In this document: piece after piece, positions 16,216 through 63,397 of the stretch
Position numbering within the stretch: position 1 is the stretch's first letter
How the letters are laid out: each line of letters starts with the position of its first letter
IMG/VR virus record: IMGVR_UViG_3300021399_004696
Reading direction: 5' to 3' (one strand)
DNA length: 64,000 bases
From: an uncultured virus (IMG/VR IMGVR_UViG_3300021399_004696)
Taxonomy: Duplodnaviria; Heunggongvirae; Uroviricota; Caudoviricetes
The notes under the pieces: model-generated
Seen by the model: the letters and a program-made list of their open reading frames with translations, nothing else
Databases searched by the model: none
Told to the model about the DNA's origin: nothing
Position numbers and translations under genes: made by a program

Positions 16216-16240
16216 CATCAGACAAGGAGGGAGCTTGCTT

Positions 16241-22752: not shown

Positions 22753-22768
22753 CGAGGGAGGGATAACA

Positions 22769-36800: not shown

Positions 36801-39800
36801 ATTATAGAGGAGAAACGTACGATTTCTATATCTGTCCTCATTTGACCGTAGATTATAATTTGAATACCGGAAATCCTGATACAGATTCTCATCCTACAAG
36901 GCATTGGTTAAGTTCCGGTCAGAATGTTGATCCTACTGAACAGCGTGTTGCTTATTATATGAATACAAATGCCAGAGAAGGGTACACATTCCTTGGTTGG
37001 TCTTACACGCCTGATGGCGAAGTTGCTATTCCTGCATCTGATACTGAGTCGGCAAGATTTAATGCTCTGGAGCATACTGTTTTGTATGCACAGTGGGAGC
37101 TTACCGGAGATCCTACGATTACGCCTGAGCCGGCTGACAGTAATGCCAGATATATCAGGATTACCTATAATACTCAGAGAAGTGTAGTTGCGCCCGGTAC
37201 TTCGTTCAGTAATGAGTCGCAGATCATGGATATGTATTATGATGTGGAGTATCAAGAGAGTAAAGTTAATCCTGATACAGGCATTGATGAAGGTGGTTTC
37301 ACATTTGGCGGATATTTACCTGAACTTATGCCGATCCGTGATTATATGGTCACGAATAGTGACGGGACTACATACTACTTTGACGGTTGGTATACAGAGC
37401 CTAACGGTCAGGGCATTAAGGTAGAAGAAGGCACAGACGTTTATTGCGCTTATACGGAGAGCATGACCTTATATGGTCATTGGATCGAAGGTGTAAAGAT
37501 CTACTTTAATGCTTTCGGTGTTAATGCGCCGAGTTCAATAGACGATCTGACATATTACGGTGCAACTAATTACTCTGATGGGTATAAAGCAAACACCGAT
37601 ACATCTATCGATGCTCAGTATTATATGGTAATGAATCCTAATGTGCCCATCGGTAATATTTTGAAAAATATAAACGATCGTTCTACGCCTGCTACTAAAA
37701 CATTTATTGGCTGGTTTATGGACGATACTGATGCTCAGATGCTGACCGGTGAAGAGTTACCTATAGTGGATCACGTATATTGGGCGCATTGGTCTTCTGA
37801 TCCTGCAGTTACAACGGTAACGAGCGGAGATATTGAGTATAGTTACAGAATTGAGTGGGCTAATGTTTCTAACAGAGTTTCTGCGGATAAACTGTGGTTT
37901 GTTAATAAGCAGCCTGAGCAGAATATGATCATCAGCTTCTCTGTTAACTCTCCTACGCAGACCCTTCCTGCAGGTGCTATATCCATTAAGTTGCCTTATG
38001 AGGGGTCTATGCAGAATGTTGCCCAGTATCCTGACACGACGTACGGCGGTTTCTTCTCTTATCGCGTAGTAAGTCCTACGTGGAGTAACGATACGTACAT
38101 ACCCGGGTATTACGAACTTATTAATACAGTACCTATTTCCGGTGCCGGTATTGAGGGTGTTGTTGAGATCCCTGCGCCTACGCTCAGGCAGTCACCTACA
38201 GATAAGGCATACACCGTATCCATAACAGTTGATGAAGATGTTGATGGAACGCCTGAATATGAGTACGAGAAAGAAATGTCTTGGCACTTTGAGGGCGGTG
38301 TATCATATTTGAACGGTGCCAGCTATTATCAAGGTACTTATTATCAGACTTGGAATTCTTCTTGGGGCGCGCAACCTGCCGGCTCGGAAAACTATTTCTA
38401 TATTGATTGGGAGTTAAAAGCAAGCAGGTCTAATTCCAGTTATGTTGATGGTAGCGGTGTTATGTCTGCAACTGCAGTCGGAGCTCCTGCAGAAGGCGTT
38501 TATACCGTTAAAACGACAAGACGCAACGCCGGTAGTGGATCGTATCGCCTTCATGTTATCCGTGCTTATCCCATGTCTATGATAGACCCCGAATCCGGGC
38601 GTTGTACCGTAGATGAACAGTTTGCTGTTACTTGGAATCCTAATTTCGTGGTTCGTGGTACTACCAGTCCTGACACGATGATCATTGATGCTGAAAAAAC
38701 GGTTCGCTGGGAAAGATATACGCACGTAATGCTTAATTATTCCATGGGCCGTAACGGTACAGCACGCGAAAAGAACGTACTTGAAAACTTTGTTAGTGCT
38801 ACGGGGTCGCCTATCACAAACCTTCAGTGGCACGTAACTTATGAGAATAGCTCTCCTATTAACAGGGAGTACGATCACGGAGATCTTATTTCTTCAGAGT
38901 GGGTAAATGAAGAGATCGCGTTGTCTGTATTACCTGGGGATGTTTATTATAATTCGGGTGCGCCGGATGACTATTATGATTGGCACCCCGAGTTTGGTAA
39001 TGAAGTTCTCGGTCAGGAGGACTATGCTATTACAAATCTGTCGATCATTCGTTATTCCAGAACAGCAGATGCAGAGTTGGATGAGTCGATGCTGTGGGCA
39101 ACGTCTCGTATATATACAGATCCGATTACGGTAGATCTGTATGTACAGAGAAGGGGAGATACAGAGCCTGTTTATTATAATACTTATACGTTTAATAACG
39201 GATCTACAAGTCAGCAGAACATAACGCTTCCTGGCAATATTGTAGGTGTCGTGGCTAAGACACAGACGAATGGAGCATATTATTCATATTTCAGGATTCT
39301 TCCTACTTTGAAGATCCTGCATACGGATCGTATGGTCACATTGATGGGTAACGATTATAATCAGAATGCTTCTTCTGTAATCAAACTCGGATCACATCTG
39401 GACATTACATATCCCGATTATGGCGGATATAATCCCACAAACTTCTGGGATGAGGTTCACATGGAATTCTCTGAGGCTGAATCTACAGGTAGCGCTTTGC
39501 TGGATTTGTATGAGATTACCGGTAATAGGCTTGGAGATGTATCTATATACGCAGAAGGCGTTTGCTCTAGCTTTACAAACAATTCATCTACAGGTGTCCA
39601 AAGTGCAAAGTTTACCTTTGGTGTAAGGCACGCGTCAACAGAAGCTACGGATTATCGTAATATTACTGACGGTACTTTCTATATCTATCTGCCCGCAGGC
39701 GCTACGGCCCGTGACATATCGTTGGTTTACGGTAGAACTCAAAGTGCAATGCCTACCAGTGGAAACAGGGTATCCGGAAAGGTGCCCGACTCTAAATATA

Positions 39801-41260
39801 CTGTAGAGCAAGTAGATAACTGGGAGGGAACAGGGCGTGCTATGTTGATAGTTTCCTTCCACGATCTTACTGATCGAGCTAACAGTTGTAACGTTGTAGA
39901 TTGTAAGGTGACGGTTGAAAAGGATTATTTCAGTGTTATGTCTACAGGAACAGCAGGTTCGATACCTTTCCTGTTCGTTAACGAGACGCCTGAGATCCCT
40001 GATGATTACGTTACACAGAGTTATCAGTTTACTGAAAACCACGCTACTAATAATCCTAATCAGGCGTTTAGCAGTATCGCAGCAAATAATCAGCAGATCA
40101 GGATGGTAACTAACTACGCTAACAGGAATTTCCAGACGATTACAACGCCTCAGTACGGCTATTCCGCAACTATTGCAAATAGTTCCGGAGTGTACGGGGC
40201 TACTACAACGGTATTCCCTGGTGAAGATTTCAGTTATCGTTTGCGCTATAGTCAGCCCAGCGGTACCAGAACAGGTAATATCCACATTCAGGATACTCTT
40301 GACGGTGTCGGTACCTTGGTAAGTGTAGATGCGCCTTCAATGAGCGGTCTTAACGATCAGGGTCAGAACACAACTTGCGTACCTGTTATATGGTATTCTC
40401 TCGATGAGAATCCGGATTTTGACAATATAGATGCAACTCACGGATGGACAACAGACGCACCTGTAGGGCAGGTCGTTAAGGGGCTGTATGTAGATTATAG
40501 TACTGATATAAACGGTGATCCGTTTATCCTGAACGATCAGAGGTTTATTACGGTAACTGTTAACGAGACCAACGGGCCTTGGACAGATGGCAGAACATTT
40601 ACCAGTGAAAGTGAATTCGATTATTCACTTTATAACGGATTGTCGCCTTCTACAGACGGCTTGCTGTATCAGGGTGTTACCGGTGGTACAGTAGCCCTTC
40701 CTACATTAGAAATCACCAATAGAGCTAATCCGGCATCCGGAACCGAGGCTGAACCTCGTGAAGTCAAGAGAAATTCGAGTATTCAGTATACTATTACGGT
40801 TACTAATAATTCGGATCGTGCAGTACAGGATCTCAGGTTGGTTGATCCTCTTCCTGATTCGCTTATCTGGGATTATGAAAATATCCGAGTAGACGGCCTT
40901 ACGTTAGCTGATGCAGGTATTACAGATTATGATTTCACTAATGGTCTTAATCTTGTTATTCCTAACCTCAGTAAAAACGGTTCAGTAACAATAACAGTTC
41001 CCACGATAGCTGACGCACCTGCAGAAACACGCATTGAGACAACAGCGCATATCACAGAAGTGTTTGGTGTGGCTTTGGAGCCTGAACAGGTTTATAATTC
41101 CAATACCACTTACCACAGCATTTTGTTGATAGTACCTGATCCTACAGGGTTTAATGCAAACTTTATCAAAGAGGCTCTGCCGTTGTTCGGCGTGACATTG
41201 TGCTTACTTCTTATCGTTTATGAAGTCAAGCCCAGGAGGAAGGAGGAGACAAGTGACTAA
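30863..41260 (+). CDS. giant surface adhesin: BspA-like ~26-aa repeats, Listeria-Bacteroides repeats, DUF11-like domain, sortase signal
   Basis: Many WDxSxVTxMxxMF repeats; FDPNGG..GYTFLGW..LYAxW repeats; VPDPTG followed by TM and basic tail. Confidence 0.9.
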   Translation: MYRAKTKVLAFSVTTALMFNVFGGGVALAVESADTTDETVPEGYTYEETAETEDPEDIPAVERTDLIEPEEGESTTETEEADPTDATETEATESGESSEEVTPAVVSIDDIDDVSDTDVLVVESDETETTEAVEAVEEPAFDMTVSLDDVDVRVMADEGVLPVGATLSVSVVDDVDTDELIDRGDNEIVALSTVYDITIFDENGQEIQPDGDVRVLFYDTRFADSNLTASVYHIEDEEAVELDYVFVDENDEITEDIDEMIAVEAVTDGFSYYTVEFTYEEMEYTLSGGADVALSEILNTLGLEGDVTATSVSNNTLFNVIEENGVPVVRSLQAFDTEEWLKVIINGVEYTIVVTDAQTATVGTDAYAILYDSGKMVFQIGDTPDPDEGTVVSTWLVTAAPDTGSGVSPRPWNSNTDITSIDFKDPIEGITSGFNFFYGLTNLASITNIDNLGTSAMTAMNGMFQNCQSLTSIDLNYFDTSSVTNIGNMFYGCSSLTSLDLSSMDVSNAYSRACLFTGCSNLSSIDMSGWVWVNGPGSMAGVFSGFNPTNGVALDASEWSFRNGQPAHVFGRSFADSCIWTDIDVSNWDLSNLTSLQGFFCSPRIQHITGLDTWDVSGISSFDQTFQGASSLSAESLADTEGWDMSSATNLSNMFNGCYQATSFDLSGWNVENVTNFGNMFAGNYTLTELNVSGWDTSAAQNFSNFIGGTAIEEIDLTSFNTANTTGMNSMLASTALNKIIISDDFVIPANQTATTGYWRVGDTSTVLSAFANGQISATTPGNTYWRAYPVTFDPNGGTINGSTDTVTIYYSENVQDAFPADAERTAYNFMGWVDGDGVQYTQIVADMPDTLYASWSDYIPQTATVGVDAYAILYTDGSLVFQKGNIPDPEKTVAQGPLLLTATNNTWSTDSRWYNTATSMEFKDNIVGRTSLNQFFGYMNKVTSISHLERLDTSRVTSLTACFASSKVTSFPGLETWDMSSVVFMDRMFANCTNITDLSTLPFENWEFERPVTMDYMFRDCSGLTSLDGIEDLDMSHTTSTAAMFQNCNKITNVDALADWDMSNNTNMTSMFRSCTALLNADGIAGWDFSKVLSTASMFRLCSKLTSVPDFENKDWSSVTDMNSMFYSCTKLTDTSGLEYLDLTALTDMGSMFYQAGITDLNGLRGWNTPALQNMAYAFYRCASLADTTATIGWDLPSLTNMASAFYQDTSLVNLNGLSGWNTPALQDLSSTFSICTGLTDVDGLSGWDTTSVTTMENTFSGCSKLENLDGLSDWDTPALTTMYHTFINCQGLLDIDGLTDWDTPALTNMDRTFYNVNKVTNLDALAGWDVSHVTTLNSTFYNMTALTDISGLSSWNTGSVTNMASTFYGDRNITDYAPLSGWDVSSVTSLYSAFNNNTGLTDTDVFSEWRTPALDTAYGMFEGCSNLTTLDGLADWGPTHLTNMSRMCINCSSLVDMDGIADWDTQYVTTFDSLFSGCSSLEEIDMGSWDMSASWDSSYNNTSSMFTNCNALWKITLPETFRTAYATTSYNEPGLNGMWYRESDGARLQIRQDVLEGFDETDADTYYKEFTLNFYPMGGTVEPATIKLSVLGMDEDFPTPVRTGYTFLGWYDADGNLYTEYPVGRKLTKLYAHWDVAETYAIVFDPNGVEGINAVTRNVAFDESTQLNRDVFGDVSGYSLISWNTEPDGSGTEYSVNATVMRLAENPGDTITLYAQWVEQVPMTITVHYIDYKTGDELGSATYNTVSGSTWEDLGTDYYFTTDDSYTAYFWSKLPGLDGESRMDNPDYANSSTQYKSWYSYTSDNGQVVLYNTVLEETDTDLYVYMLPPVGFRIWYPQPLLDEVPDFTMTIDGVDYASGEYVLYMPFYDPTGTYSNGITRYTTRVSVNPYYTWATDANGTPVSGMSSTTSYPQADVELVTNRGATFTAPFTTVWYYLLADDSVSTTGSGNYAYTTYDTSNANTQYGYYNTLGYEYGGYYRGETYDFYICPHLTVDYNLNTGNPDTDSHPTRHWLSSGQNVDPTEQRVAYYMNTNAREGYTFLGWSYTPDGEVAIPASDTESARFNALEHTVLYAQWELTGDPTITPEPADSNARYIRITYNTQRSVVAPGTSFSNESQIMDMYYDVEYQESKVNPDTGIDEGGFTFGGYLPELMPIRDYMVTNSDGTTYYFDGWYTEPNGQGIKVEEGTDVYCAYTESMTLYGHWIEGVKIYFNAFGVNAPSSIDDLTYYGATNYSDGYKANTDTSIDAQYYMVMNPNVPIGNILKNINDRSTPATKTFIGWFMDDTDAQMLTGEELPIVDHVYWAHWSSDPAVTTVTSGDIEYSYRIEWANVSNRVSADKLWFVNKQPEQNMIISFSVNSPTQTLPAGAISIKLPYEGSMQNVAQYPDTTYGGFFSYRVVSPTWSNDTYIPGYYELINTVPISGAGIEGVVEIPAPTLRQSPTDKAYTVSITVDEDVDGTPEYEYEKEMSWHFEGGVSYLNGASYYQGTYYQTWNSSWGAQPAGSENYFYIDWELKASRSNSSYVDGSGVMSATAVGAPAEGVYTVKTTRRNAGSGSYRLHVIRAYPMSMIDPESGRCTVDEQFAVTWNPNFVVRGTTSPDTMIIDAEKTVRWERYTHVMLNYSMGRNGTAREKNVLENFVSATGSPITNLQWHVTYENSSPINREYDHGDLISSEWVNEEIALSVLPGDVYYNSGAPDDYYDWHPEFGNEVLGQEDYAITNLSIIRYSRTADAELDESMLWATSRIYTDPITVDLYVQRRGDTEPVYYNTYTFNNGSTSQQNITLPGNIVGVVAKTQTNGAYYSYFRILPTLKILHTDRMVTLMGNDYNQNASSVIKLGSHLDITYPDYGGYNPTNFWDEVHMEFSEAESTGSALLDLYEITGNRLGDVSIYAEGVCSSFTNNSSTGVQSAKFTFGVRHASTEATDYRNITDGTFYIYLPAGATARDISLVYGRTQSAMPTSGNRVSGKVPDSKYTVEQVDNWEGTGRAMLIVSFHDLTDRANSCNVVDCKVTVEKDYFSVMSTGTAGSIPFLFVNETPEIPDDYVTQSYQFTENHATNNPNQAFSSIAANNQQIRMVTNYANRNFQTITTPQYGYSATIANSSGVYGATTTVFPGEDFSYRLRYSQPSGTRTGNIHIQDTLDGVGTLVSVDAPSMSGLNDQGQNTTCVPVIWYSLDENPDFDNIDATHGWTTDAPVGQVVKGLYVDYSTDINGDPFILNDQRFITVTVNETNGPWTDGRTFTSESEFDYSLYNGLSPSTDGLLYQGVTGGTVALPTLEITNRANPASGTEAEPREVKRNSSIQYTITVTNNSDRAVQDLRLVDPLPDSLIWDYENIRVDGLTLADAGITDYDFTNGLNLVIPNLSKNGSVTITVPTIADAPAETRIETTAHITEVFGVALEPEQVYNSNTTYHSILLIVPDPTGFNANFIKEALPLFGVTLCLLLIVYEVKPRRKEETSD

Positions 41261-42220: not shown

Positions 42221-42874
42221 ATGATTTACACTAATTGGGAAGATTTATACCGAGAATACAACAAAGAGCGTTCTGACATGTCGTTTGACGAAGAAGTTTC
42301 TTTTGTTGAAGATTGTTTTGATTCGTATGAACATTGGGGTTTTGCGCAGACATTTAAAACGCCCTATGAGGACAAGGCAAAGTACAACGGGATGAAATTT
42401 ACCGTTGATAAAAGGCTTTCTTATACAGAAGATGATGTCAATCTGGAAGTTCTTCCTATGTGGAAGATCAAGATGGAAAACGGCGATGTGATAGATGCAT
42501 ATCCTGAAGAAATATGTCTGGCTGAAAGAGAGCTGGTTATTACTGATGTTGATTTTGTATATACCGGCGGGGGCATCTTTCTATTCTGGGGCGCTCTTGA
42601 TAACGGGCAGTATTTTATTGCTGACGGAGATAGGTTCGATGTCAGGATCTTGAACGTTAATCCTAACGATTACGGCACAGATGACGAGATTTGGTACGCA
42701 GAGTGGCAGGAAGAACATCTGGTGCGCGATCTGAATACCGAGACCGAAGGGCCTGCTTTTATCCTTAAAATGTTTGACTGGATTCACAAGAATAAGGAAA
42801 ATGACCTCATGGACGGTATGGATTATATTGAAGAAGAGGCTGCAAGCCTGAGAGGTAAAAGAGGGTGGAGATAA
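42221..42874 (+). CDS. hypothetical protein
   Basis: 217-aa acidic ORF. Confidence 0.8.
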   Translation: MIYTNWEDLYREYNKERSDMSFDEEVSFVEDCFDSYEHWGFAQTFKTPYEDKAKYNGMKFTVDKRLSYTEDDVNLEVLPMWKIKMENGDVIDAYPEEICLAERELVITDVDFVYTGGGIFLFWGALDNGQYFIADGDRFDVRILNVNPNDYGTDDEIWYAEWQEEHLVRDLNTETEGPAFILKMFDWIHKNKENDLMDGMDYIEEEAASLRGKRGWR

Positions 42875-43851
42875 CGAGCATACAAAAAGAGGTCAATAAG
42901 ATATTAGAAGAATGTCCAAGTACTATTTTGTTAGGGTATGGCGGGAGTCACGCTTACGGCACGAATATTGAAACTTCCGATATAGATATCAGGGGCATTT
43001 ATATGAATCCTATAGAGGAGCTTATAGGCATCAGTGCCGATTCTGAGCAGTATATTCCTTCAGACGGTGATACAGTCATATATAGCATTAAAAAGATGTT
43101 TAAGCTTTTAGAAGACTGCAATCCTAATACGATCGAACTTTTAGGGCTTAATCCGGACGGCTATTTATATATCAGTCCTGCAGGTCAGCTTATACTGGAT
43201 AACAGCAGTGTCTTTTTATCCAAGAAAGCTACATATACTTTCGGTAATTACGCCAAAAGCCAACTTAACAGGCTTGTAAACAAGTCCGGCAGGGTCAGGG
43301 ACGAAGTCGAGGTAAACGAATTCCGTTCTTTGAAGAAAGTACAAGCATATTTGAAAAAGCGGTGGCCGAACATTGATCTGGAAGTTTTGTTTTATGATGA
43401 CCAACCCCATATTCAATTGAATAACAGCGTTGACATTGACACTTTTTCCAAGATCACTTCTGAGATCAATAATGTCCACGCCGATTATAAAAAGAGCATA
43501 CGAAATAATAAGGCAGAAGTTCATAATAAGCTTAGTAAACATATGATGCATCTTATCAGGCTGTATTATATGGGTATCGACATTTTGGAAAAAGGTGAGA
43601 TCAACACATATAGGGCAGAAGAGCATGATCTTTTAATGGATATTCGAAACTGTAAATATCTTGAAAAGGATATGGTAACTCCCACCTGGGATTTTATGAA
43701 TATTTTGACAAAGCTGAATGCCAGATTTGAATTGGCGTCAGTTAAATCCTCTTTACCTGAAAGGGCCGATAGGGATAAGATCAACTCTTTGATGCAGGAA
43801 TGTTTTGCTCTTTTTTACGGGGTGGAGATGCCAAAACCTTTTGAAATCTAA
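42865..43851 (+). CDS. Pol-beta superfamily nucleotidyltransferase (RlaP/YcgL-like)
   Basis: GGSHAYGT..SDIDIRG, NPNTIELL, KHMMHLIRL. Confidence 0.88.
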   Translation: MEITSIQKEVNKILEECPSTILLGYGGSHAYGTNIETSDIDIRGIYMNPIEELIGISADSEQYIPSDGDTVIYSIKKMFKLLEDCNPNTIELLGLNPDGYLYISPAGQLILDNSSVFLSKKATYTFGNYAKSQLNRLVNKSGRVRDEVEVNEFRSLKKVQAYLKKRWPNIDLEVLFYDDQPHIQLNNSVDIDTFSKITSEINNVHADYKKSIRNNKAEVHNKLSKHMMHLIRLYYMGIDILEKGEINTYRAEEHDLLMDIRNCKYLEKDMVTPTWDFMNILTKLNARFELASVKSSLPERADRDKINSLMQECFALFYGVEMPKPFEI

Positions 43852-43939
43852 TCTAAAAATTTTGAGGTTTTGTAAGAATCGCAAAGAATTATTAACGAAA
43901 ACTCACCTTTCGTTTTTCGAGGGCTTGGTGAGTGTCAAA

Positions 43940-43972
43940 TTCCGGGAGTTTTTAAGTGGGTTATGATAAAAC
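43940..43972 (+). promoter_or_regulatory. TTCCGGG-N20-TAAAAC promoter motif
   Basis: Recurrent motif; imperfect -10 hexamer. Confidence 0.6.
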
Positions 43973-44001
43973 AAGGCAAACGGAAAGGAATTTAATGAAA
44001 T

Positions 44002-45069
44002 ATGCCTCGACAATTAGCAAGTATTCAGAAGATTGACAGCTTAAGCCCGATTGAAGGGGCGGATATGATAGAACTTGCTCACATAAAAGGGTGGCAGGTT
44101 GTTGTCAAGAAGAATGAGTTTAAAGAGGGCGATCTCGGCGTGTATTTTGAGATCGATTCGTTTCTTCCTATAGATCCCCGATATGAGTTTTTGCGTAACA
44201 GCTCTTATAAGGTTTCCGACCTTCTGGGCGAAGGTTTCAGGATCAAAACAGTTAAATTGAGAGGTCAGTTAAGCCAAGGCCTTTTGTTATCGGTTAAAAA
44301 CTTTCCTGAGATCAAAGATCCCATTGTCGGTTCAGACGTTACTGAAATTCTCGGTGTTCGCAAGTGGGAGATCGCGACCAGGGCGTCGTCTTCTGGAACT
44401 ATAATCGCAGATCTTCCTTCATATGTTCCTTATACGGATGAGATACGCATTCAAAACATCCCTGAAGTTATCGAAGAGATTAACAGATATGAATATTATA
44501 TATCTGTTAAGATGGACGGCACTTCTTGCAGTGTTGCTATTGATACAGAAGGGCAGTTTCATGTTTTCGGGCATCAGTATGAATATGCGGATGATGGAAC
44601 AAGCACGTTTTATGAGTGGGTAAAAGCTCATCATGTTGAAGAGCTTCTTCGGGATCTGTGGGAACCCGGTACATCTATAACAGTGCAAGGGGAGTATTGC
44701 GGTGCGGGTATTCAGAAAAATACGGCTAAATTGAGAGAGCCTTACTGGTTTATATTTACTGTATTAAAAAACGGCAAGAGGATCTCTCTTCACGAGATGA
44801 AGCGGGTTTCTAACAGGCTTCGTATCAGAACAGTGCCGATCATTGAATGCGGAGAAAGAGGTTCGTTCATTAAGAAGCATCCTACAGTTGAAAAGATCTT
44901 GGAATTTGCGGACGGACAATACAAAGATTTTGATGATGAGACAAAAGATGTGGGAAGAAGAGAGGGTATCGTCATCAGGTCTCAGACTCCCGTGTATTCA
45001 TCGATCGTGTCCGGCGATCTGTCTTTTAAGGCGGTAAGTAATAAGTATTTATTGAAGAACGACGATTAA
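44002..45069 (+). CDS. ATP-dependent RNA ligase (DRB0094/Rnl2-like)
   Basis: N-terminal IEGADMIE..GWQVVV..YFEIDS; motif I KMDGTS; QGEY; EGIV; SFKAVSNKYL. Confidence 0.92.
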   Translation: MPRQLASIQKIDSLSPIEGADMIELAHIKGWQVVVKKNEFKEGDLGVYFEIDSFLPIDPRYEFLRNSSYKVSDLLGEGFRIKTVKLRGQLSQGLLLSVKNFPEIKDPIVGSDVTEILGVRKWEIATRASSSGTIIADLPSYVPYTDEIRIQNIPEVIEEINRYEYYISVKMDGTSCSVAIDTEGQFHVFGHQYEYADDGTSTFYEWVKAHHVEELLRDLWEPGTSITVQGEYCGAGIQKNTAKLREPYWFIFTVLKNGKRISLHEMKRVSNRLRIRTVPIIECGERGSFIKKHPTVEKILEFADGQYKDFDDETKDVGRREGIVIRSQTPVYSSIVSGDLSFKAVSNKYLLKNDD

Positions 45070-57372: not shown

Positions 57373-57448
57373 GGACAGTAAGCTAATCTGGTGAAAGCAT
57401 CGGTTTGAAGCACCGAAGAGGTTGGATCGAAACCAACACTGTCCACCA
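57373..57448 (+). tRNA. tRNA-Phe(GAA), atypical
   Basis: Cloverleaf with CCA; A8, T-loop ATCGAAA, anticodon loop TTGAAGC. Confidence 0.75.
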
Positions 57449-57453
57449 TATAT

Positions 57454-57530
57454 GGGGCTTTAGCTCAGTTGGGATGAGCGTCTGCCTTGCAAGCAGAAGG
57501 TCACGAGTTCGATCCTCGTAAGCTCCACCA
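57454..57530 (+). tRNA. tRNA-Ala(TGC)
   Basis: Cloverleaf; G3:T70; CCA. Confidence 0.95.
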
Positions 57531-57535
57531 TATAT

Positions 57536-57612
57536 GCTCGATTAGCTCAGCTGGGATGAGCATCTGCCTTACAAGCAGAGGGCCGGGGGTTCGAAACCCT
57601 CATCGAGCACCA
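57536..57612 (+). tRNA. tRNA-Val(TAC)
   Basis: Cloverleaf; loop CTTACAA; CCA. Confidence 0.93.
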
Positions 57613-57616
57613 CAAC

Positions 57617-57666
57617 TTTATCGGTTCATGTGACCCGATAAATGGTCCGATAAATGACCCGATAAT
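57617..57666. repeat. 12-bp repeats TGACCCGATAAA-like (one inverted, three direct)
   Basis: 57617-57628 inverted; direct copies at 57631, 57643 and 57655. Confidence 0.7.
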
Positions 57667-57815
57667 ATCGATATTGTAAGCAGGCACTTTAATATCGAAT
57701 CGAACTTTGACAATTAAATATTCTTCCATATTCACTATATCCCTGTGGCGAAGGGTTGTTCAGGGTATTTCGGTGGATCGGCCTGAGCATAAAACCTAAC
57801 CGTCCACTGTCTTTT

Positions 57816-57891
57816 GTCCCATTGGTGTAATGGTTTAGCACTCCTGCCTTCCAAGCAGGCAATGAGGGTTCGATTCCCTTATGGGGCTCCA
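57816..57891 (+). tRNA. tRNA-Gly(TCC)
   Basis: Cloverleaf; loop CTTCCAA; TCCA end. Confidence 0.93.
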
Positions 57892-57896
57892 TATAT

Positions 57897-57983
57897 GGGT
57901 GGGTAAACCGTAGTTGGTAGCGGGTCAGACTGTAAATCTGATGTCTTTCGGCTCCGGGGGTTCGATTCCCTCCCCACTCACCA
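57897..57983 (+). tRNA. tRNA-Tyr(GTA)
   Basis: Loop CTGTAAA; long variable arm; CCA. Confidence 0.92.
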
Positions 57984-57987
57984 AAAT

Positions 57988-58064
57988 GGATGCGTAGCTC
58001 AGTTGGCAGTAGCAGCAGACTCTTAATCTGAAGGTCGCAGGTTCGATGCCTGTCGCATCCACCA
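57988..58064 (+). tRNA. tRNA-Lys(CTT)
   Basis: Loop CTCTTAA; CCA. Confidence 0.92.
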
Positions 58065-58069
58065 CATAT

Positions 58070-58145
58070 CGAGGTGTAAGCCAGTGGTCAGACGGCGTGC
58101 CTTGGGAGCACGAAGACGAAGGTTCGAATCCTTCCACCTCGACCA
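58070..58145 (+). tRNA. tRNA-Pro(TGG)
   Basis: C1:G72; loop CTTGGGA; CCA. Confidence 0.92.
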
Positions 58146-58152
58146 TTTATAT

Positions 58153-58226
58153 CGTAGCTTCTTTCAATGGTAGGAAGCCCGTCTGATAAGCGGGTAATAC
58201 AAGTTCAATTCTTGTAGCTACGACCA
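58153..58226 (+). tRNA. tRNA-Ile(GAT)
   Basis: Loop CTGATAA; CCA; divergent D arm. Confidence 0.85.
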
Positions 58227-58331
58227 GGCGGGCCGACATACTAGTTGTTGTCGGATAGTGGCCAGAAGCCGAAAGCGGTGTTCCCGAAAGAAAGGCGCGT
58301 TATCCTTTCGGTTAAAGCCGTCCCGTCGCCA
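58227..58331 (+). ncRNA. tRNA-like orphan RNA with acceptor-type stem and GCCA end
   Basis: GGCGGG/CCCGTC closing stem; internal hairpins; no canonical D or T loops. Confidence 0.5.
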
Positions 58332-58335
58332 CTAA

Positions 58336-58412
58336 GGGCATGTAGCTCAGTTGGTCAGAGCATCCGGCTCATAACCGGACGGTCCAGAGTTCGAGTCTCT
58401 GCTTGCCCACCA
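58336..58412 (+). tRNA. tRNA with CAT anticodon, probably Ile2
   Basis: CGG-CTCATAA-CCG arm and CGGTC variable loop as in Firmicutes Ile2. Confidence 0.85.
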
Positions 58413-58418
58413 CATTTA

Positions 58419-58451
58419 TTCCGGGTGTTGCGGTCTAACACAAAGTATAAT
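58419..58451 (+). promoter_or_regulatory. TTCCGGG-N20-TATAAT internal promoter
   Basis: Recurrent motif with a perfect -10. Confidence 0.75.
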
Positions 58452-58465
58452 AAATATGTTGACAC

Positions 58466-58545
58466 GGCGCGTTGGTGAAGCTTGGTTCAACACACCGCCC
58501 TTTCACGGCGGCACTCACTCGGTTCAAATCCGGTACGCGTCACCA
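58466..58545 (+). tRNA. tRNA-Glu(TTC)
   Basis: CCGCC-CTTTCAC-GGCGG arm; CCA. Confidence 0.9.
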
Positions 58546-58549
58546 AGAT

Positions 58550-58625
58550 GCTTCTATAACTCAGTTGGTAGAGTGACTGCCTTGTAAGCAGTAAGTCCAG
58601 GGTTCGAGTCCCTGTAGAAGCTCCA
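58550..58625 (+). tRNA. tRNA-Thr(TGT)
   Basis: Loop CTTGTAA; CCA. Confidence 0.93.
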
Positions 58626-58631
58626 AAAGCC

Positions 58632-58930
58632 CGCCGAGGCCCGATCGTAAGGTCGCAGGCTGTGAGGTGAAAGACGGATCGCTGAGACGGTGTAGCCGGT
58701 AGATATGCGTATCGAAAGCTTTAACGCGAAAGGCTCGGTTTATAAGCAACCGGTTAAATGCTTATCCCCAAAGGCTCCGCGGGGTAAAAGCGGTTAGCTC
58801 CTAAACCGCAAGGCGCTTAGGGCGGGTGAAGGGGAGTTGCCTTATATGAGATCGATATAAGGTTTATGAAACTCCAAGCGCTAAAGTCGTCGACACCGTA
58901 ACGGACTGCAGTAACGTGTACAGGACGGCG
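58632..58930 (+). ncRNA. ~300-nt highly structured orphan RNA
   Basis: Nested long-range helices, GNRA loop and a potential pseudoknot; no ORF. Confidence 0.65.
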
Positions 58931-58938
58931 CATTATAC

Positions 58939-59013
58939 GGCCCTATGGTATAACGGCTATTATGGCGGATTGTCTCTCCGCAGACCGGGGTTCGACTCCC
59001 CGTAGGGTCGCCA
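58939..59013 (+). tRNA. tRNA-Asp(GTC)
   Basis: Loop TTGTCTC; GCCA end. Confidence 0.88.
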
Positions 59014-59180
59014 GTTAAGTGAGGGAGTTTCGGGAAAGGCTAATGGCTTTGAAAAAAGCTATTGGTCGGCACTGAAACAGGAAACGTGCAAAGAAGGGTT
59101 AGCCTTCATAAAGATGCGGGGAAGCTTTCCAGGCATCTTGAACTATCAGTCCCGATGCCAAAGACGGTGCATGTGCTGAC
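59014..59180 (+). ncRNA. ~170-nt structured orphan RNA
   Basis: TCGGGA/TCCCGA stem enclosing four hairpins, including a 13-bp GAAA-loop hairpin. Confidence 0.55.
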
Positions 59181-59188
59181 TTTAATAT

Positions 59189-59264
59189 TCTCGGGTAGTT
59201 CAATCGGTAGAGCAACGGACTGTTAATTCGTGAGTTGTGGGTTCGAGTCCCACCCCGGGAGCCA
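59189..59264 (+). tRNA. tRNA-Asn(GTT)
   Basis: Loop CTGTTAA; GCCA end. Confidence 0.93.
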
Positions 59265-59359
59265 AATAATCTAGGAAAGTGAGGGTTAGGATAGTGTTGG
59301 GGACTCCTAAGCTGATTTCCAAAGCGGAGGACCTTCGGTCTTTATAAAGGAGTGCGAGG

Positions 59360-59704
59360 ATGGAAATAGAACGGATCTCCAAAGATGAATTTGTAAAAAT
59401 TCTAAAAAAGATACAAGACGATTGGGATTTTTATTCTTTAATATCTTCTTTAGGTCATAAGAATAACAGAGAGGATACTTTGAATATATCGCCTAAGACC
59501 GTTGATGTTGCGATTGAGCTTTTAGAAAAGCTAAGTGGGGATAGGTATGAATATATTTCCTGGTGGTGTTTCGAAAAAGATTTCGGAAGACGAGTTGATA
59601 TAAATGTTTATGAAGGAAAGGGCGAAGATCAAATAGTTCCTACAGATACGGCGGAGGATCTTTATGATCTGATTACGCAGAATTTGCAAGAAAAAGCTTC
59701 TTAA
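59360..59704 (+). CDS. hypothetical protein within the tRNA array
   Basis: AAGGAG RBS; ISWWCFEKDFG and TAEDLYDL. Confidence 0.8.
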   Translation: MEIERISKDEFVKILKKIQDDWDFYSLISSLGHKNNREDTLNISPKTVDVAIELLEKLSGDRYEYISWWCFEKDFGRRVDINVYEGKGEDQIVPTDTAEDLYDLITQNLQEKAS

Positions 59705-59760
59705 TAGCGGATAGAAGAGGAAGGTCGTGACCATCGCTATCTGCTACGACCATATATTAA

Positions 59761-59884
59761 GAAGAGGTAGGTTGGGATTAAGTTACCCGTTCGCAAGGCC
59801 TTACCACCCGAAACCTGTGAGAGTCAAATATCGGGGAACTCCAAGGGATTTACCCTTGCCAGCGGAGGTTGGGCTCCGCACTTC
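59761..59884 (+). ncRNA. ~125-nt multi-branched orphan RNA
   Basis: GAAG/CTTC closure enclosing four hairpins. Confidence 0.45.
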
Positions 59885-59886
59885 AT

Positions 59887-59961
59887 GTTGATCTTGGTGT
59901 AATGGTAGCATTACAGATTGTGGCTCTGTCGGTATGGGTTCAACTCCCGTAGATCAACCCA
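59887..59961 (+). tRNA. tRNA-His(GTG)
   Basis: G-1:C73 pair; loop TTGTGGC; CCA. Confidence 0.92.
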
Positions 59962-59966
59962 AATAC

Positions 59967-60040
59967 GCGCCATTGGTGTAATGGTAGCACATTAGCTTCC
60001 CAAGCTGACAGTACGGGTTCGATCCCCGCATGGCGCTCCA
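59967..60040 (+). tRNA. tRNA-Gly(CCC)
   Basis: Loop TTCCCAA; TCCA end. Confidence 0.92.
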
Positions 60041-60067
60041 TTTTACGCCACAAAAATTTAGTGACAA

Positions 60068-60143
60068 GCTCCTGTTCGTCGTCGGCCGGCGGTGCGGTCT
60101 GCAAAACCGTAACATGTGAGTTCGAGTCTCACCGGGAGCTCCA
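60068..60143 (+). tRNA. tRNA-Cys(GCA)
   Basis: Loop CTGCAAA; U73; divergent D loop. Confidence 0.82.
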
Positions 60144-60146
60144 TAA

Positions 60147-60222
60147 GCCCCCGTAGCACAACAGGAGGTGCAACGCCCTTCTAAGGCGAAGGTTGCAGGT
60201 TCGAGCCCTGTCGGGGGTACCA
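60147..60222 (+). tRNA. tRNA-Arg(TCT)
   Basis: Loop CTTCTAA; CCA. Confidence 0.92.
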
Positions 60223-60240
60223 GTAATGTTAAGTGAATAT

Positions 60241-60316
60241 GCCCCTGTCTTTCAACCGAATAGGAAAGCGGTTTCCTAAACCGCCAATCAGAGTTTGAGT
60301 CTCTGCAGGGGTACCA
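60241..60316 (+). tRNA. tRNA-Arg(CCT), divergent
   Basis: Loop TTCCTAA; T loop TTTGAGT; CCA. Confidence 0.8.
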
Positions 60317-60330
60317 CAAATGAGTAATGA

Positions 60331-60369
60331 TTTGTGATGATTTTTCGGTTTTGTGATGATTTGTGATGA
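60331..60369 (+). repeat. three copies of TTTGTGATGA
   Basis: Copies at 60331, 60350 and 60360. Confidence 0.65.
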
Positions 60370-60388
60370 CTTATCAACACTTTAAAAC

Positions 60389-60463
60389 GGTCGCGTAGGC
60401 TAATGGATAGACTTTCTGACTACGGATCAGACGGTGCGGGTTCGACTCCTGCCGCGATCGCCA
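60389..60463 (+). tRNA. tRNA-Arg(ACG)
   Basis: Loop CTACGGA; GCCA end. Confidence 0.92.
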
Positions 60464-60494
60464 CGTCTTATAAAACACGATGAAGAAAGGAGTG

Positions 60495-60995
60495 ATGAAT
60501 ATCGTGTTCAGACAAGCTAACGGAAGAGAAATATCGATGGAAGGAATCGCTAAGCGGATCGCGGGTTTCATCAATGCCGATCTTCAAAGTGAATACGAGG
60601 TTACCGTGGGTACCGACAGTCAGAACTTCAGTAAGACTAAGATGGTAGAAGTCATAGCGGTACATCGTGCAGGGACGGGAGGGATCTATTTTTATAGCAT
60701 CGATTATATTCCTCTTATTCAGAATCTGAAGCAAAAGATCAATGAAGAGACTTCACGTAGCCTTATGGTGGCTAATGAACTTATTGATGAGTTGACTTTT
60801 GCACTGATGGAGAAAGAGCAGGATATAGATGAACTGAAACTTTCTTTCCAGATCCACTGCGACATAGGAAAATATGGTAAGACCAGCATGTTGATAAAAG
60901 AGATCACTAGTTGGGTAACCAGTCAAGGTTATGTATGTCTTATCAAGCCTGACAGCTATGCAGCAAGTGCTATAGCAAACAAGTATAGTAAGTAA
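60495..60995 (+). CDS. RNase H-like YkuK (DUF458) family protein
   Basis: VGTDSQ, KINEETSRSL, IHCDIG, IKPDSYAAS..AN. Confidence 0.9.
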   Translation: MNIVFRQANGREISMEGIAKRIAGFINADLQSEYEVTVGTDSQNFSKTKMVEVIAVHRAGTGGIYFYSIDYIPLIQNLKQKINEETSRSLMVANELIDELTFALMEKEQDIDELKLSFQIHCDIGKYGKTSMLIKEITSWVTSQGYVCLIKPDSYAASAIANKYSK

Positions 60996-61036
60996 AGGTT
61001 TCGGCGTTCCTTAAAACCAAAAACGCCGATCCATAT

Positions 61037-61113
61037 GGCGCCATCCTATAAACGGTTAGTAGACCGGACTCTCAATCCGGCAATGTCGGGTTCGATCCCC
61101 ACTGGCGTCACCA
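61037..61113 (+). tRNA. tRNA-Glu(CTC)
   Basis: Loop CTCTCAA; CCA. Confidence 0.9.
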
Positions 61114-61116
61114 TAT

Positions 61117-61192
61117 GCAGGATTAGCTCAATTGGTAGAGCGTCGCCTTGCCATGGCGAAGGTTGCGGGTTCAAGCCCCGTATCTTGCTCCA
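61117..61192 (+). tRNA. tRNA-Gly(GCC)
   Basis: Loop TTGCCAT; TCCA end. Confidence 0.93.
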
Positions 61193-61206
61193 CTTTTATA
61201 ATAAAC

Positions 61207-61283
61207 GCTTCCGTGGCGCAATTGGCAGACGCAGGCGGTTCAGGGCCGTCAGGTTCCGAGTTCGAGTCTCGGCGGAAGCACCA
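61207..61283 (+). tRNA. tRNA-Leu(CAG), short variable loop
   Basis: Leu-type D loop; loop TTCAGGG; A73. Confidence 0.85.
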
Positions 61284-61299
61284 CTTTGGAAAAACATAC

Positions 61300-61379
61300 G
61301 CCCGCGTAGCAGAATTTGGCATATGCGCCAGACTAAGGATCTGGGTCTTTTCGGGGTTCGACTCCCCGCGTGGGCACCA
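61300..61379 (+). tRNA. tRNA-Leu(AAG), short variable loop
   Basis: Loop CTAAGGA; A73. Confidence 0.85.
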
Positions 61380-61381
61380 AC

Positions 61382-61414
61382 TTCCGGGATTTATCAAACT
61401 TTTTCTTGTAATAT
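61382..61414 (+). promoter_or_regulatory. TTCCGGG-N20-TAATAT internal promoter
   Basis: Recurrent motif. Confidence 0.7.
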
Positions 61415-61431
61415 TAATCTTAGGTTGAAAT

Positions 61432-61508
61432 GTCCGATTGATGGAATTGGCATACGTGCCTGACTCAAAATCAGGATTTTTCGGGTTCGAGTCCCGAATC
61501 GGACACCA
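61432..61508 (+). tRNA. tRNA-Leu(CAA), short variable loop
   Basis: Loop CTCAAAA; A73. Confidence 0.87.
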
Positions 61509-61620
61509 GCTGGGGATGCCCGAGCACTCAAAGGGGCCGGCGCGTATCACCGGTGTCCGATGGACGGCGTGCACCTTGCGTCCAGGACTGCGTAGGTATA
61601 GAATCCTGCTCCCCGCACCA
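61509..61620 (+). ncRNA. aberrant tRNA-Tyr-like RNA with very long variable arm
   Basis: Tyr-like D arm; 9-nt loop with GTA; T-arm-like hairpin; ACCA end. Confidence 0.6.
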
Positions 61621-61632
61621 ATTTTCTTAAAA

Positions 61633-61709
61633 GCCCAAGTAGGCCAATTGGCAGAACCACCGGACTTAAAATCCGTATCGTGCCGGTTCGAATCCGGTCT
61701 TGGGCACCA
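61633..61709 (+). tRNA. tRNA-Leu(TAA), short variable loop
   Basis: Loop CTTAAAA; A73. Confidence 0.85.
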
Positions 61710-61713
61710 ACAT

Positions 61714-61787
61714 AGGCGTATGATGTAATGGTAGCATGACGGTCTCCAAAACCGTTTGTGTGGGTTCAAGTCCTACTACGCCTGCCA
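61714..61787 (+). tRNA. tRNA-Trp(CCA)
   Basis: Loop CTCCAAA; GCCA end. Confidence 0.93.
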
Positions 61788-61798
61788 TTAAAATAAAT

Positions 61799-61874
61799 GC
61801 CGAATTAACTCAGTTGGTAGAGTAGCGGTATCGTAAACCGCAGGTCGTGGGTTCGAGTCCCACATTCGGCTCCA
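61799..61874 (+). tRNA. tRNA-Thr(CGT)
   Basis: Loop ATCGTAA; CCA. Confidence 0.93.
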
Positions 61875-61876
61875 AC

Positions 61877-61909
61877 TTCCGGGTAGATTCGCCAGTGATG
61901 TGGCATACT
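61877..61909 (+). promoter_or_regulatory. TTCCGGG-N20-CATACT internal promoter
   Basis: Recurrent motif with TGn extension. Confidence 0.7.
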
Positions 61910-62006
61910 GAGATTAGTAACGAGGAAGGTGAAGGTATCATTCATGAATGTCACTGTTGTAATTGCGGAGCCCGCATTACATACAGAATACCGATAGGAG
62001 AAGAAA

Positions 62007-62243
62007 ATGAGGAAGCATAATGTCGATGAAATTCATCTGTCTGTAGATAAGGTTGAGATAGTTAATGATACGGTTATCATTAGCTGGAGCTCGGATATTG
62101 GATTCGGCGAGTACGAAATCTGTTGGTCTGAGGAAGCACAGGAATGGTGTGCATACACAGAATGTATGGATAGGGACGACGATAAGGCGTTCGGAGCCAA
62201 ACTTTTGGCACTGTGGATGGAGCAGATAAAGATAAGGGATTGA
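62007..62243 (+). CDS. hypothetical protein within the tRNA array
   Basis: AGGAG RBS; WSSDIGFGEY and TECMD..DK motifs. Confidence 0.75.
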   Translation: MRKHNVDEIHLSVDKVEIVNDTVIISWSSDIGFGEYEICWSEEAQEWCAYTECMDRDDDKAFGAKLLALWMEQIKIRD

Positions 62244-62250
62244 TCAAGAC

Positions 62251-62325
62251 GGCCGTGTAGTGTAAACGGTAGCACAGCAGACTTTGACTCTGTTAATGTG
62301 GGTTCGATCCCCGCCACGGCTGCCA
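62251..62325 (+). tRNA. tRNA-Gln(TTG)
   Basis: Loop CTTTGAC; GCCA end. Confidence 0.92.
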
Positions 62326-62348
62326 CATAGCAAATAATTTTTGAATAA

Positions 62349-62425
62349 GCGCCCGTAGCTCAGACGGTAGCAGCACTTGACTTTTAATCAAGGGGTCATG
62401 GGTTCGAATCCCATCGGGCGTACCA
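62349..62425 (+). tRNA. tRNA-Lys(TTT)
   Basis: Loop CTTTTAA; CCA. Confidence 0.94.
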
Positions 62426-62492
62426 ATATGAAGAATCTTGGCAAATCTGAAGTTGTACTTTGGATCAGTCAAATATACTGGAGAATGTTGAA

Positions 62493-62792
62493 ATGAAAAA
62501 ACTGCTGATCTTAGCTACTATGCTGTTTATGGTACTTGCTACTTTACTGGGCATTTGGTGCTATCGTGAATATAGGGCTGAGGAGAATGCCAAGGGCATT
62601 TGCATCAGTTATCGTGATCTTGATGTAGGGAGTACGTACGGGTTAGATGTTACATTCTATTCAGACGAAGAGCAGGTCGTAGGAACAGGGTATGTAGAAT
62701 TTCAGCCTGAGACAAAAGATTCATCTTGTTGCTTGATAGACTGCGATGTTCCTGAAGGAGCCACACACGCATCTTTCAATATAGTAGAGTAA
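62493..62792 (+). CDS. small membrane-anchored or secreted hypothetical protein
   Basis: GGAG RBS; MKKLLILA hydrophobic N-terminus. Confidence 0.75.
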   Translation: MKKLLILATMLFMVLATLLGIWCYREYRAEENAKGICISYRDLDVGSTYGLDVTFYSDEEQVVGTGYVEFQPETKDSSCCLIDCDVPEGATHASFNIVE

Positions 62793-62808
62793 ATAGGTTT
62801 TATAATAT

Positions 62809-62882
62809 TGCGAGGAGGGTCTGGTTCCCAAGAAGCTCTCATAAGGCTTCCTATCCGAGTTCAAGTCTCGGCTTCGCAACCA
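62809..62882 (+). tRNA. tRNA-Met(CAT), atypical (initiator-like acceptor stem)
   Basis: TGCGAGG/CTTCGCA; loop CTCATAA; reduced D arm; lacks the three G-C initiator pairs. Confidence 0.7.
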
Positions 62883-62887
62883 CATAC

Positions 62888-62978
62888 GACGGGGTGGCGG
62901 AGTCCGGTCTAACGCGCCGGTCTTGAAAACCGGAGGCCTCGCAAGGGTCCGTGGGTTCGAATCCCACCCCCGTCGCCA
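62888..62978 (+). tRNA. tRNA-Ser(TGA)
   Basis: Loop CTTGAAA; long variable arm; GCCA end. Confidence 0.94.
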
Positions 62979-62982
62979 TTAT

Positions 62983-63058
62983 GCTTCCATAGCTCAGTAG
63001 GCAGAGTGCATCCATGGTAAGGATGAGGTCGTCGGTTCGATCCCGACTGGAAGCTCCA
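62983..63058 (+). tRNA. tRNA-Thr(GGT)
   Basis: Loop ATGGTAA; CCA. Confidence 0.93.
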
Positions 63059-63063
63059 ATTAT

Positions 63064-63138
63064 AGCCCGATCGTATAACGGCTAGTATAGCGGTCTCTGG
63101 AACCGCGGATGAAGGTTCGATTCCTTCTCGGGCTGCCA
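63064..63138 (+). tRNA. tRNA-Gln(CTG)
   Basis: Loop CTCTGGA; GCCA end. Confidence 0.9.
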
Positions 63139-63150
63139 AACTTTTACTAT

Positions 63151-63241
63151 GCCGTGGTACCTTAGTGGGGAGGAGGCGCGGTTTCGAAAACCGTCGGTCG
63201 TGAATAACGATCTGTGAGTTCAAATCTCACCCACGGCGCCA
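63151..63241 (+). tRNA. tRNA-Ser(CGA)
   Basis: Loop TTCGAAA; long variable arm; GCCA end. Confidence 0.88.
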
Positions 63242-63274
63242 GGAATATGAAAGACTATTTAATTGTATAGAAAT

Positions 63275-63363
63275 GTCGTCATGGGGTAATGGTAGCCCAA
63301 GAGCCTGCTAAGCTCTCCAACCCATTACGGGTTGTCCGAGTTCGAGTCTCGGTGGCGACGCCA
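63275..63363 (+). tRNA. tRNA-Ser(GCT)
   Basis: Loop CTGCTAA; long variable arm; GCCA end. Confidence 0.9.
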
Positions 63364-63369
63364 GATCTG

Positions 63370-63397
63370 AAAGCACTCTCTTCGGAGGGTGTTTTTG
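63370..63397 (+). terminator. intrinsic terminator ending the tRNA array
   Basis: GCACTCTC-TTCG-GAGGGTGT plus T run. Confidence 0.85.

Follow-up and report, generated by a model that had tools for sequence, protein, structure and literature searches.

A probable non-coding RNA of about 300 nt that matches no catalogued family, located in the tRNA array of a putative conjugative element

Introduction

Does the long gap between the tRNA-Thr and tRNA-Asp genes of a tRNA array on a mobile element hold an RNA gene of its own, or is it a spacer that lingers after the tRNAs have matured? To our knowledge, the tRNA islands of mobile elements were recognized decades ago as sites of non-tRNA RNAs, to which no function has been assigned. 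A preliminary description of the DNA studied here, made from the sequence alone, had placed a structured RNA of a possibly undescribed class in this gap. We analyzed the gap in the context of the window, by which we mean the whole 64,000-nt stretch of DNA. We consider it probable that positions 58626-58938 constitute a real RNA gene, giving rise to a stable non-coding RNA of ~300 nt that belongs to no catalogued family. Hence, of the earlier proposal, an RNA without a matching family is probable, but the structured fold ascribed to it was not borne out.

Results

Position and non-coding status of the candidate RNA

The features of the locus and of its carrier are collected in Table 1.

Table 1. 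Coordinates of the features in the window that are discussed in the text (positions count from the first base of the window).
Feature	Coordinates	Strand	Basis or remarks
MobA/VirD2 relaxase	8134-8985		Pfam
Type IV (VirD4-type) coupling protein	12428-14311		Pfam
PrgI	16175-16579		Pfam
VirB4/TraG-like ATPase	16620-19088		Pfam
Gene pair RlaP (RNA-repair-pathway nucleotidyltransferase) and RNA ligase	42865-45066		Pfam; precedes the tRNA array by ~12 kb
Array of 35 tRNA genes covering all 20 amino acids; contains the candidate RNA	57373-63363	+	ARAGORN
tRNA-Thr(tgt), CCA encoded	58550-58625	+	ARAGORN; RF00005, 72.7 bits
Candidate non-coding RNA gene	58626-58938	+	313-nt gap bounded by tRNA-Thr and tRNA-Asp, the largest possible extent
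Closing pair CGCCG/CGGCG	58632-36/58926-30	+	String present
Hairpin CGATC-GTAA-GGTCG	58642-55	+	Pair probability 0.93
Helix ACGGTGT/ACACCGT	58687-93/58893-99	+	String present
Helix AGCCGGT/ACCGGTT	58694-700/58749-55	+	String present, one G-U
Site of 7-nt insertion (and C58736T) in the second haplotype	58735-58736	+	Runs X3 and X7
Crossing pair ATAAGCA/TGCTTAT	58742-48/58759-65	+	String present
Three-tier extended hairpin (the three tiers below)	58812-58882	+	
Helix tier GGCGCTT/AAGCGCT	58812-18/58876-82	+	String present
Helix tier GGAGTT/AACTCC	58833-38/58870-75	+	String present
Helix tier CCTTATAT/ATATAAGG	58840-47/58855-62	+	String present
tRNA-Asp(gtc)	58939-59013	+	ARAGORN; RF00005, 52.7 bits
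RNaseH-like YkuK-family ORF, 171 aa, inside the array between tRNA-Arg and tRNA-Glu	60480-60995		PF04308, E 2.9e-43
Terminator-like hairpin, 13 pairs and a T run, directly 3' of the last tRNA	63368-63397	+	

All six reading frames of the gap contain stop codons, which agrees with the earlier view that the stretch is non-coding, and the longest ORFs of the region encode 30 aa on the plus strand and 62 and 38 aa on the minus strand. The G+C content of the candidate RNA is 0.52, which is tRNA-like, as compared with 0.39-0.48 in the 2-kb bins of the window and 0.39-0.46 in the ORF-bearing and unconserved spacers of the array. Most spacers of the array (20 of 34) are only 3-18 nt long, and the gap is far longer than these. 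Five spacers reach at least 300 nt, among which the gap is the only one that lacks an ORF of at least 70 aa. No promoter-like or terminator-like sites were detected around the candidate RNA, and the sole terminator-like site of the array is the one that follows the last tRNA gene.

The strand, the action in trans and the function of the candidate RNA are inferred, as is its processing route, for which we rely on this arrangement and on what is established for tRNA operons. It would be co-transcribed with the tRNAs as a single precursor. RNase P cleavage at the 5' end of tRNA-Asp would generate its 3' end, and the 3' maturation of tRNA-Thr its 5' end. The freed RNA would then build up as a discrete molecule of ~300 nt that acts in trans. 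The position between the two tRNA genes fits the suggestion in the preliminary description that tRNA processing would release the RNA.

Divergence between two natural haplotypes

A second haplotype of the locus is present in the public runs X3 and X7 (sheep and bovine gut), and in one contig it spans positions 58356-59265. In the core of the candidate RNA (58626-58931), this haplotype differs by three substitutions in 306 nt (A58650C, T58663C and C58736T), in addition to the insertion given in Table 1. The neighbouring non-tRNA DNA (58413-58465, 58932-58938 and 59014-59188) has 15 substitutions in 235 nt, of which 1 is located in the first segment, 2 in the 7-nt tail 58932-58938 and 12 in the spacer 59014-59188. 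The core has therefore diverged ~6.5 times more slowly than its surroundings (3/306 versus 15/235, Fisher p = 0.001), a figure that stems from one haplotype pair and that mosaic recombination blocks, which could produce uneven divergence, might mimic. As far as one haplotype comparison goes, these sequence differences support purifying selection on the core.

The main rival explanation is that the gap is a functionless processed spacer, which is released by the maturation of the flanking tRNAs and lingers because it is rich in G+C and forms some hairpins. We give this explanation a modest chance of being correct. The slow divergence of the core argues against it, and so does the length of the gap together with its being the sole long spacer without a sizeable ORF. 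Two of the natural changes speak in its favour, since they alter features of the predicted fold: T58663C disrupts a pairing with an ensemble probability of 0.83, and A58650C converts the loop of the hairpin at 58642-55 from GTAA into GTAC, so that the GNRA loop is not kept. The 7-nt insertion is situated at the foot of a predicted hairpin and therefore tells little about the fold.

Contigs in RNA libraries

The runs that contain the searched stretch are ruminant gut and rumen samples. Eight of these 20 runs, from four studies, are RNA libraries, with word shares of 0.12-0.24 (the candidate's 296 of the 1001 bases searched would give 0.30). The comparison at contig level took in two of the eight, X10 and X12. 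These are small metatranscriptome runs, each from a different study, for which 55 and 87 million letters were read. Each contains a contig that lies wholly on the candidate RNA and shows no differences from it: record 8 of X10 is a 296-nt contig corresponding to 58636-58931, and record 16 of X12 is a 270-nt contig corresponding to 58639-58908; the strand is undefined in both cases. The contigs fall short of the 5' boundary of the gap by 10-13 nt and of its 3' boundary by 7-30 nt. The region 58946-59217 is without contig cover in X10 and X12, and this missing cover was not counted as evidence.

Contigs from DNA runs show how such borders are to be read. The contig of run X3 continues past both borders (58356-59265), and that of run X7 breaks close to the same borders (58612-58941), because tRNA sequence is common to other organisms. 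For this reason, borders of contigs carry little weight when taken by themselves. The stand-alone contigs are a weak hint of a discrete RNA; contigs show neither strand, ends nor level, and DNA may occur in RNA libraries.

Predicted folding

The preliminary description had read an ornate set of nested helices from the sequence, and every helix string that it named is literally present (Table 1). The nested fold as such did not withstand comparison with shuffled sequences. The candidate RNA contains 10 helices of at least 7 bp as compared with 8.2 +/- 2.7 in 200 dinucleotide shuffles, 62 of which have 10 or more. Its MFE on the plus strand is -104.7 kcal/mol versus -98.5 +/- 5.7 for the shuffles (z -1.08; 13 of 100 shuffles do as well), the MFE of the minus strand has a z of -1.20, and the z values of eight overlapping 100-nt windows range from -1.52 to +0.37. 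Both helix count and folding energy are hence within chance. When the nested helices are enforced, the best structure reaches -90.9 kcal/mol, a loss of 13.8 kcal/mol relative to the unconstrained optimum. The long-range closings that the ensemble prefers are different ones, GCCCGCC 58629-35 with GGCGGGU 58821-27 (p 0.95) and GCGCU 58878-82 with GGCGC 58927-31 (p 0.96). Tetraloops of the GNRA or UNCG type on stems of at least 3 bp number three, with 1.0 expected, and three or more occur in 86 of 1000 shuffles, so that their number, too, is within chance.

Individual elements fared differently. The three-tier hairpin at 58812-58882 is the sole locally significant structure of the candidate RNA (z -2.55; 2 of 200 shuffles fold equally well), and its inner 15 pairs have ensemble probabilities of 0.98-0.99. 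The hairpin at 58642-55, which had also been proposed before, is present with the high pair probability given in Table 1, but its GNRA loop is lost in the second haplotype. The proposed crossing helix exists as a string. It belongs to a set of several 7-mers that exclude one another, and nothing speaks for it in particular. Chance-level folding energy and helix counts are what the functionless-spacer explanation would lead one to expect.

The candidate RNA also contains a hint of an imperfect tandem duplication of ~40 nt, in which 58721-36 resembles 58762-77 (81%) and 58748-71 resembles 58788-811 (71%). This duplication at 58721-58811 is not clearly above chance.

Homologue searches

Within the collections searched, the only homologues of the candidate RNA are those of near-identical strains. 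Searches using blastn with a word size of 11 against 50,697 phage records retrieved the flanking tRNAs only, without a match to the candidate RNA, and in blastn searches of 72,556 plasmid records it was likewise unmatched. In IMG/VR, an exact 34-mer seed gave no matches and an exact 16-mer seed gave four, all of which proved unrelated by nhmmer. The doubled AAAGGCTC motif occurs in at least 117 IMG/VR loci, none of them related among the matches listed, and two 15-mers occur in 52 and 26 loci, none of which is related. An nhmmer search of the fetched loci (160 loci, 2.58 Mb) did not reveal a homologue of the candidate RNA. BLAST against three sets of 401 GTDB genomes (two phyla and one order; 1,203 genomes in total) produced only noise of 16-42 nt with a best E value of 0.006 per genome, and in the order-level set none of the 401 genomes gave a match at E <= 1e-5. 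In the published literature, searched with a limited set of keywords, we found no account of such an RNA beyond the analogues T4 RNAC/RNAD, ROOL, GOLLD and the RNAs of pMP7017.

The candidate RNA is therefore, at present, an orphan of a single lineage, and its fold is a predicted one. Being an orphan in every collection searched is another point in favour of a functionless spacer. We nevertheless prefer the reading as an RNA gene, given the slow divergence of the core and the exceptional nature of the gap among the spacers of the array.

Comparison with known RNA families

The candidate RNA was compared with known families using cmscan and the 4227 models of Rfam 15 (among them ROOL, GOLLD, RNase P RNAs, tmRNA, group I/II introns, manA, ToxI and Y RNA-like), at gathering thresholds for the window and with permissive filters at E <= 10 for the 326-nt stretch 58620-58945. 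At gathering thresholds, only tRNAs were detected in the whole window. The permissive search of 58620-58945 yielded only the meaningless matches WT1-AS_5 (14.3 bits, gathering threshold 80) and RAGATH-36 (10.9 bits, gathering threshold 70). This search, which had been proposed as a check in the preliminary description, thus assigns the candidate RNA to no family. ARAGORN detected neither a tmRNA nor a tRNA within the candidate RNA. The earlier statement that signatures of RNase P, tmRNA and introns could not be matched agrees with Rfam at E <= 10, with ARAGORN and with inspection by eye. On these grounds, RNase P RNA, tmRNA, intron-bearing tRNA, ROOL, GOLLD and the other Rfam families are excluded as far as the models can see.

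Several specific candidates were considered in addition. In RNase P RNA, helix P4 is formed by conserved regions I and V, beside the closing stem P1. As judged by eye, the 3' part of the candidate RNA does not contain a complement of the GAAAGACGG region, and hence no P4, and no model of bacterial RNase P RNA matched at E <= 10. For a tmRNA, we required a tRNA-like domain (acceptor stem, T-arm and CCA end) together with a tag reading frame; ARAGORN found none, and the 3' end, ...GGACGGCGCATTATAC, has no T-arm or CCA. A tRNA gene split by a group I intron would have exon halves on either side of an intron with a P3-P7 core. In 58620-58945, neither tRNA models nor those of introns gave a match at E <= 10, flanking tRNA halves are absent and, by eye, the ends form neither an acceptor stem nor a T-arm. 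Type III antitoxins of the ToxI type consist of near-perfect tandem repeats of ~36-45 nt, which the gene of a ToxN-like toxin follows directly. The direct repeats of the candidate RNA, ~40 nt apart, are just 71-81% identical over 16-24 nt, the next genes encode tRNAs, and the Pfam scan of 55 ORFs did not identify a member of the ToxN family. A sponge for a CsrA-type protein or an anti-Shine-Dalgarno sponge was considered and dropped (AAGG is present six times by eye), and for anticodon-loop mimicry no loop with a U33 pattern was seen by eye.

That the candidate RNA is a very divergent member of a known family (RNase P RNA, tmRNA, group I intron, ROOL or GOLLD) is in our view very unlikely. Its size of ~300 nt and its place among tRNA genes would fit, and GAGGTGAAAGACGG and ACAGGACGGCG bear, by eye, a faint likeness to what we take to be conserved regions I and V of RNase P RNA. 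Against this stand the permissive cmscan search, which lists none of these families at E <= 10, the absence of a tmRNA call by ARAGORN and, by eye, the lack of a P4 complement, a T-arm, a CCA end and flanking tRNA exon halves.

The carrier element

A phage context was not supported. The Pfam scan of 55 ORFs of the window revealed a relaxase, a coupling protein, PrgI, a VirB4/TraG-like ATPase (Table 1) and a sortase, and no capsid or tail families were found among these ORFs. A weak PHROGs call of the ORF at 16620-19088 as a terminase was rejected in favour of the ATPase assigned by Pfam. Further Pfam matches include a signal peptidase and a replication module of the DUF2800 / DNA polymerase A / VirE type, and a surface protein of 3465 aa contains DUF285, LRR, Listeria-Bacteroides and DUF11 repeats. 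The conjugation-type and surface genes fall within 5885-23734 and 30863-41257. The RlaP/RNA ligase pair and the set of tRNAs could form a tRNA-repair toolkit.

On the basis of this gene set, the matches of the coupling protein and the ruminant gut and rumen origin of the runs, the most likely carrier is not a phage but a plasmid-like conjugative element from Gram-positive bacteria of the Clostridia type in the rumen or gut. The best matches of the coupling protein in the plasmid database are Monoglobus and Subdoligranulum records (45-46% identity), and among PLSDB relatives the identity does not exceed 46% for the coupling protein and 39% for the polymerase. Four relatives of the DNA polymerase have 47-56% identity. 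The nearest of these is encoded by a contig of 234,848 nt (L070), the first 14,746 bases of which contain no tRNA gene; synteny with the window stops before the array. Polymerase relatives among the IMG/VR and GTDB representatives are at most 42% identical, and by this measure the clade of the carrier is absent from them. The neighbouring DUF5688 protein has one relative at 98% identity, which is recorded in ENA only. As queries, this protein and the RNaseH-like ORF inside the array did not retrieve a related plasmid, and a 114-aa ORF did not retrieve an informative phage.

Two side observations were made on this gene set. A C5 cytosine methylase is present as two ORFs (profile positions 2-240 and 235-315) within 3059-5545, and is split by an ORF of 411 aa that has a HipA-like C-terminal kinase domain. 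Furthermore, the PLSDB record L298 (Monoglobus pectinilyticus, 285,641 bp) is labelled as a plasmid, and its fetched part has pyrimidine biosynthesis genes; it also carries a siphovirus-like prophage, which is complete and includes the DUF2800 / polymerase / VirE module found in the window. L298 looks like a piece of chromosome rather than a plasmid.

The conjugative context raises the question whether the gap is conserved as a DNA-level element of a plasmid, such as an origin, an oriT or a site of recombination or attachment. The conservation signal comes from DNA sequences, and the imperfect direct repeats ~40 nt apart (71-81% identity) would suit such an element. However, the gap is part of a closely packed tRNA transcription unit 50 kb away from the relaxase gene, lacks both perfect iterons and an AT-rich tract, and is present as stand-alone contigs in two RNA libraries. 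We therefore consider a DNA-level element improbable to a high degree.

The weakest explanation, to which we attach hardly any probability, is a coding one, in which the gap would specify at least one very small protein, such as the product of the 38-aa ORF on the minus strand (58817-58933) or of the ATG frame of four codons at 58847, which is preceded by a GGGGAG box. Such frames exist, but ORFs so short are expected by chance, and of the three ORFs of at least 30 aa, two are put out of frame by the 7-nt indel. In addition, 36 of the 46 ORFs of at least 150 aa are on the plus strand, as are all 35 tRNA genes and presumably the candidate RNA, the 10 on the minus strand all overlapping longer plus-strand ORFs or the tRNA array. 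The two frameshifted ORFs are those that span position 58735 (58705-58797 on the plus strand and 58561-58749 on the minus strand), and the insertion therefore argues against coding.

Discussion

The reading that we favour, a stable non-coding RNA released from the tRNA transcript, has parallels in other mobile genomes. RNAC and RNAD of phage T4 are much shorter than the candidate RNA of ~300 nt. According to the accessible part of PMC3014915, they are small stable non-tRNA RNAs that are transcribed from the tRNA region, and no role is assigned to them there. The candidate RNA resembles them, as they are portrayed in that part, in being a non-tRNA RNA among the tRNA genes of a mobile genome. 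Unlike T4, a phage of Enterobacteria, its carrier appears to be a conjugative element of Gram-positive bacteria.

A second parallel is provided by ROOL and GOLLD. The available text of PMC12286853 presents these as large ornate RNAs without an assigned function that often occur near tRNA islands of phages or prophages, and traces the discovery of ROOL, which can reach very high abundance, to rumen data. The candidate RNA shares with them, as far as that text goes, the location at a tRNA island of a mobile genome. In contrast, ROOL and GOLLD are ~2-3 times longer, their ornate folds are well supported, and they are reported from phages and prophages, not from conjugative plasmids. Their Rfam models do not match the candidate RNA even at E <= 10.

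A third parallel concerns the type of carrier. For the conjugative megaplasmid pMP7017 of Bifidobacterium breve, the part of PMC10832533 at our disposal reports strong transcription of the tRNA array and places a tmRNA and a manA motif next to it. To the extent that pMP7017 is covered there, it resembles our probable conjugative element with its candidate RNA in having non-coding RNA at a tRNA array. The RNAs of pMP7017 are members of known families, whereas the candidate RNA matches none, and the host phylum differs. By analogy, the candidate RNA shares the niche of T4 RNAC/RNAD, ROOL and GOLLD, yet it fails every family model tested, and it is probably a new RNA.

The role of the candidate RNA would most likely lie in the tRNA, translation and RNA-repair programme of the element, for example as a binding partner or decoy for a tRNA-directed host factor. 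We can go one step further, and do so tentatively, as we hold the following to be a possibility rather than an expectation. The candidate RNA might represent the first example of an abundant, structured class of RNAs, new to science, in the tRNA arrays of conjugative megaplasmids of rumen Clostridia, and thus a plasmid counterpart of ROOL and GOLLD. Two modes of action could then be envisaged beside the RNA ligase/RlaP pair: a particle composed of RNA alone, or a partner or decoy for host factors that attack or process tRNAs. If the RNA gene is real, it extends a phenomenon of phages to a conjugative plasmid-like element with a tRNA set for all 20 amino acids and an RNA-repair pair. Since the candidate RNA was found in small RNA libraries from rumen and gut, it may be abundant enough for direct study.

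Two other spacers of the array

Two further spacers of the array attracted attention. The spacer at 61509-61632 is 124 nt long with a G+C content of 0.60; in its predicted fold it is closed by a long stem, and its last bases, ...GCACCA, resemble the acceptor end of a tRNA. Neither ARAGORN nor Rfam made a call in this spacer, which may encode an aberrant tRNA-like RNA. The spacer at 58227-58335, between tRNA-Ile and tRNA-Met, is 109 nt long, free of ORFs and has a G+C content of 0.56. It folds with a z of -2.03 (7 of 200 shuffles do as well) and may represent a second small RNA of the array.
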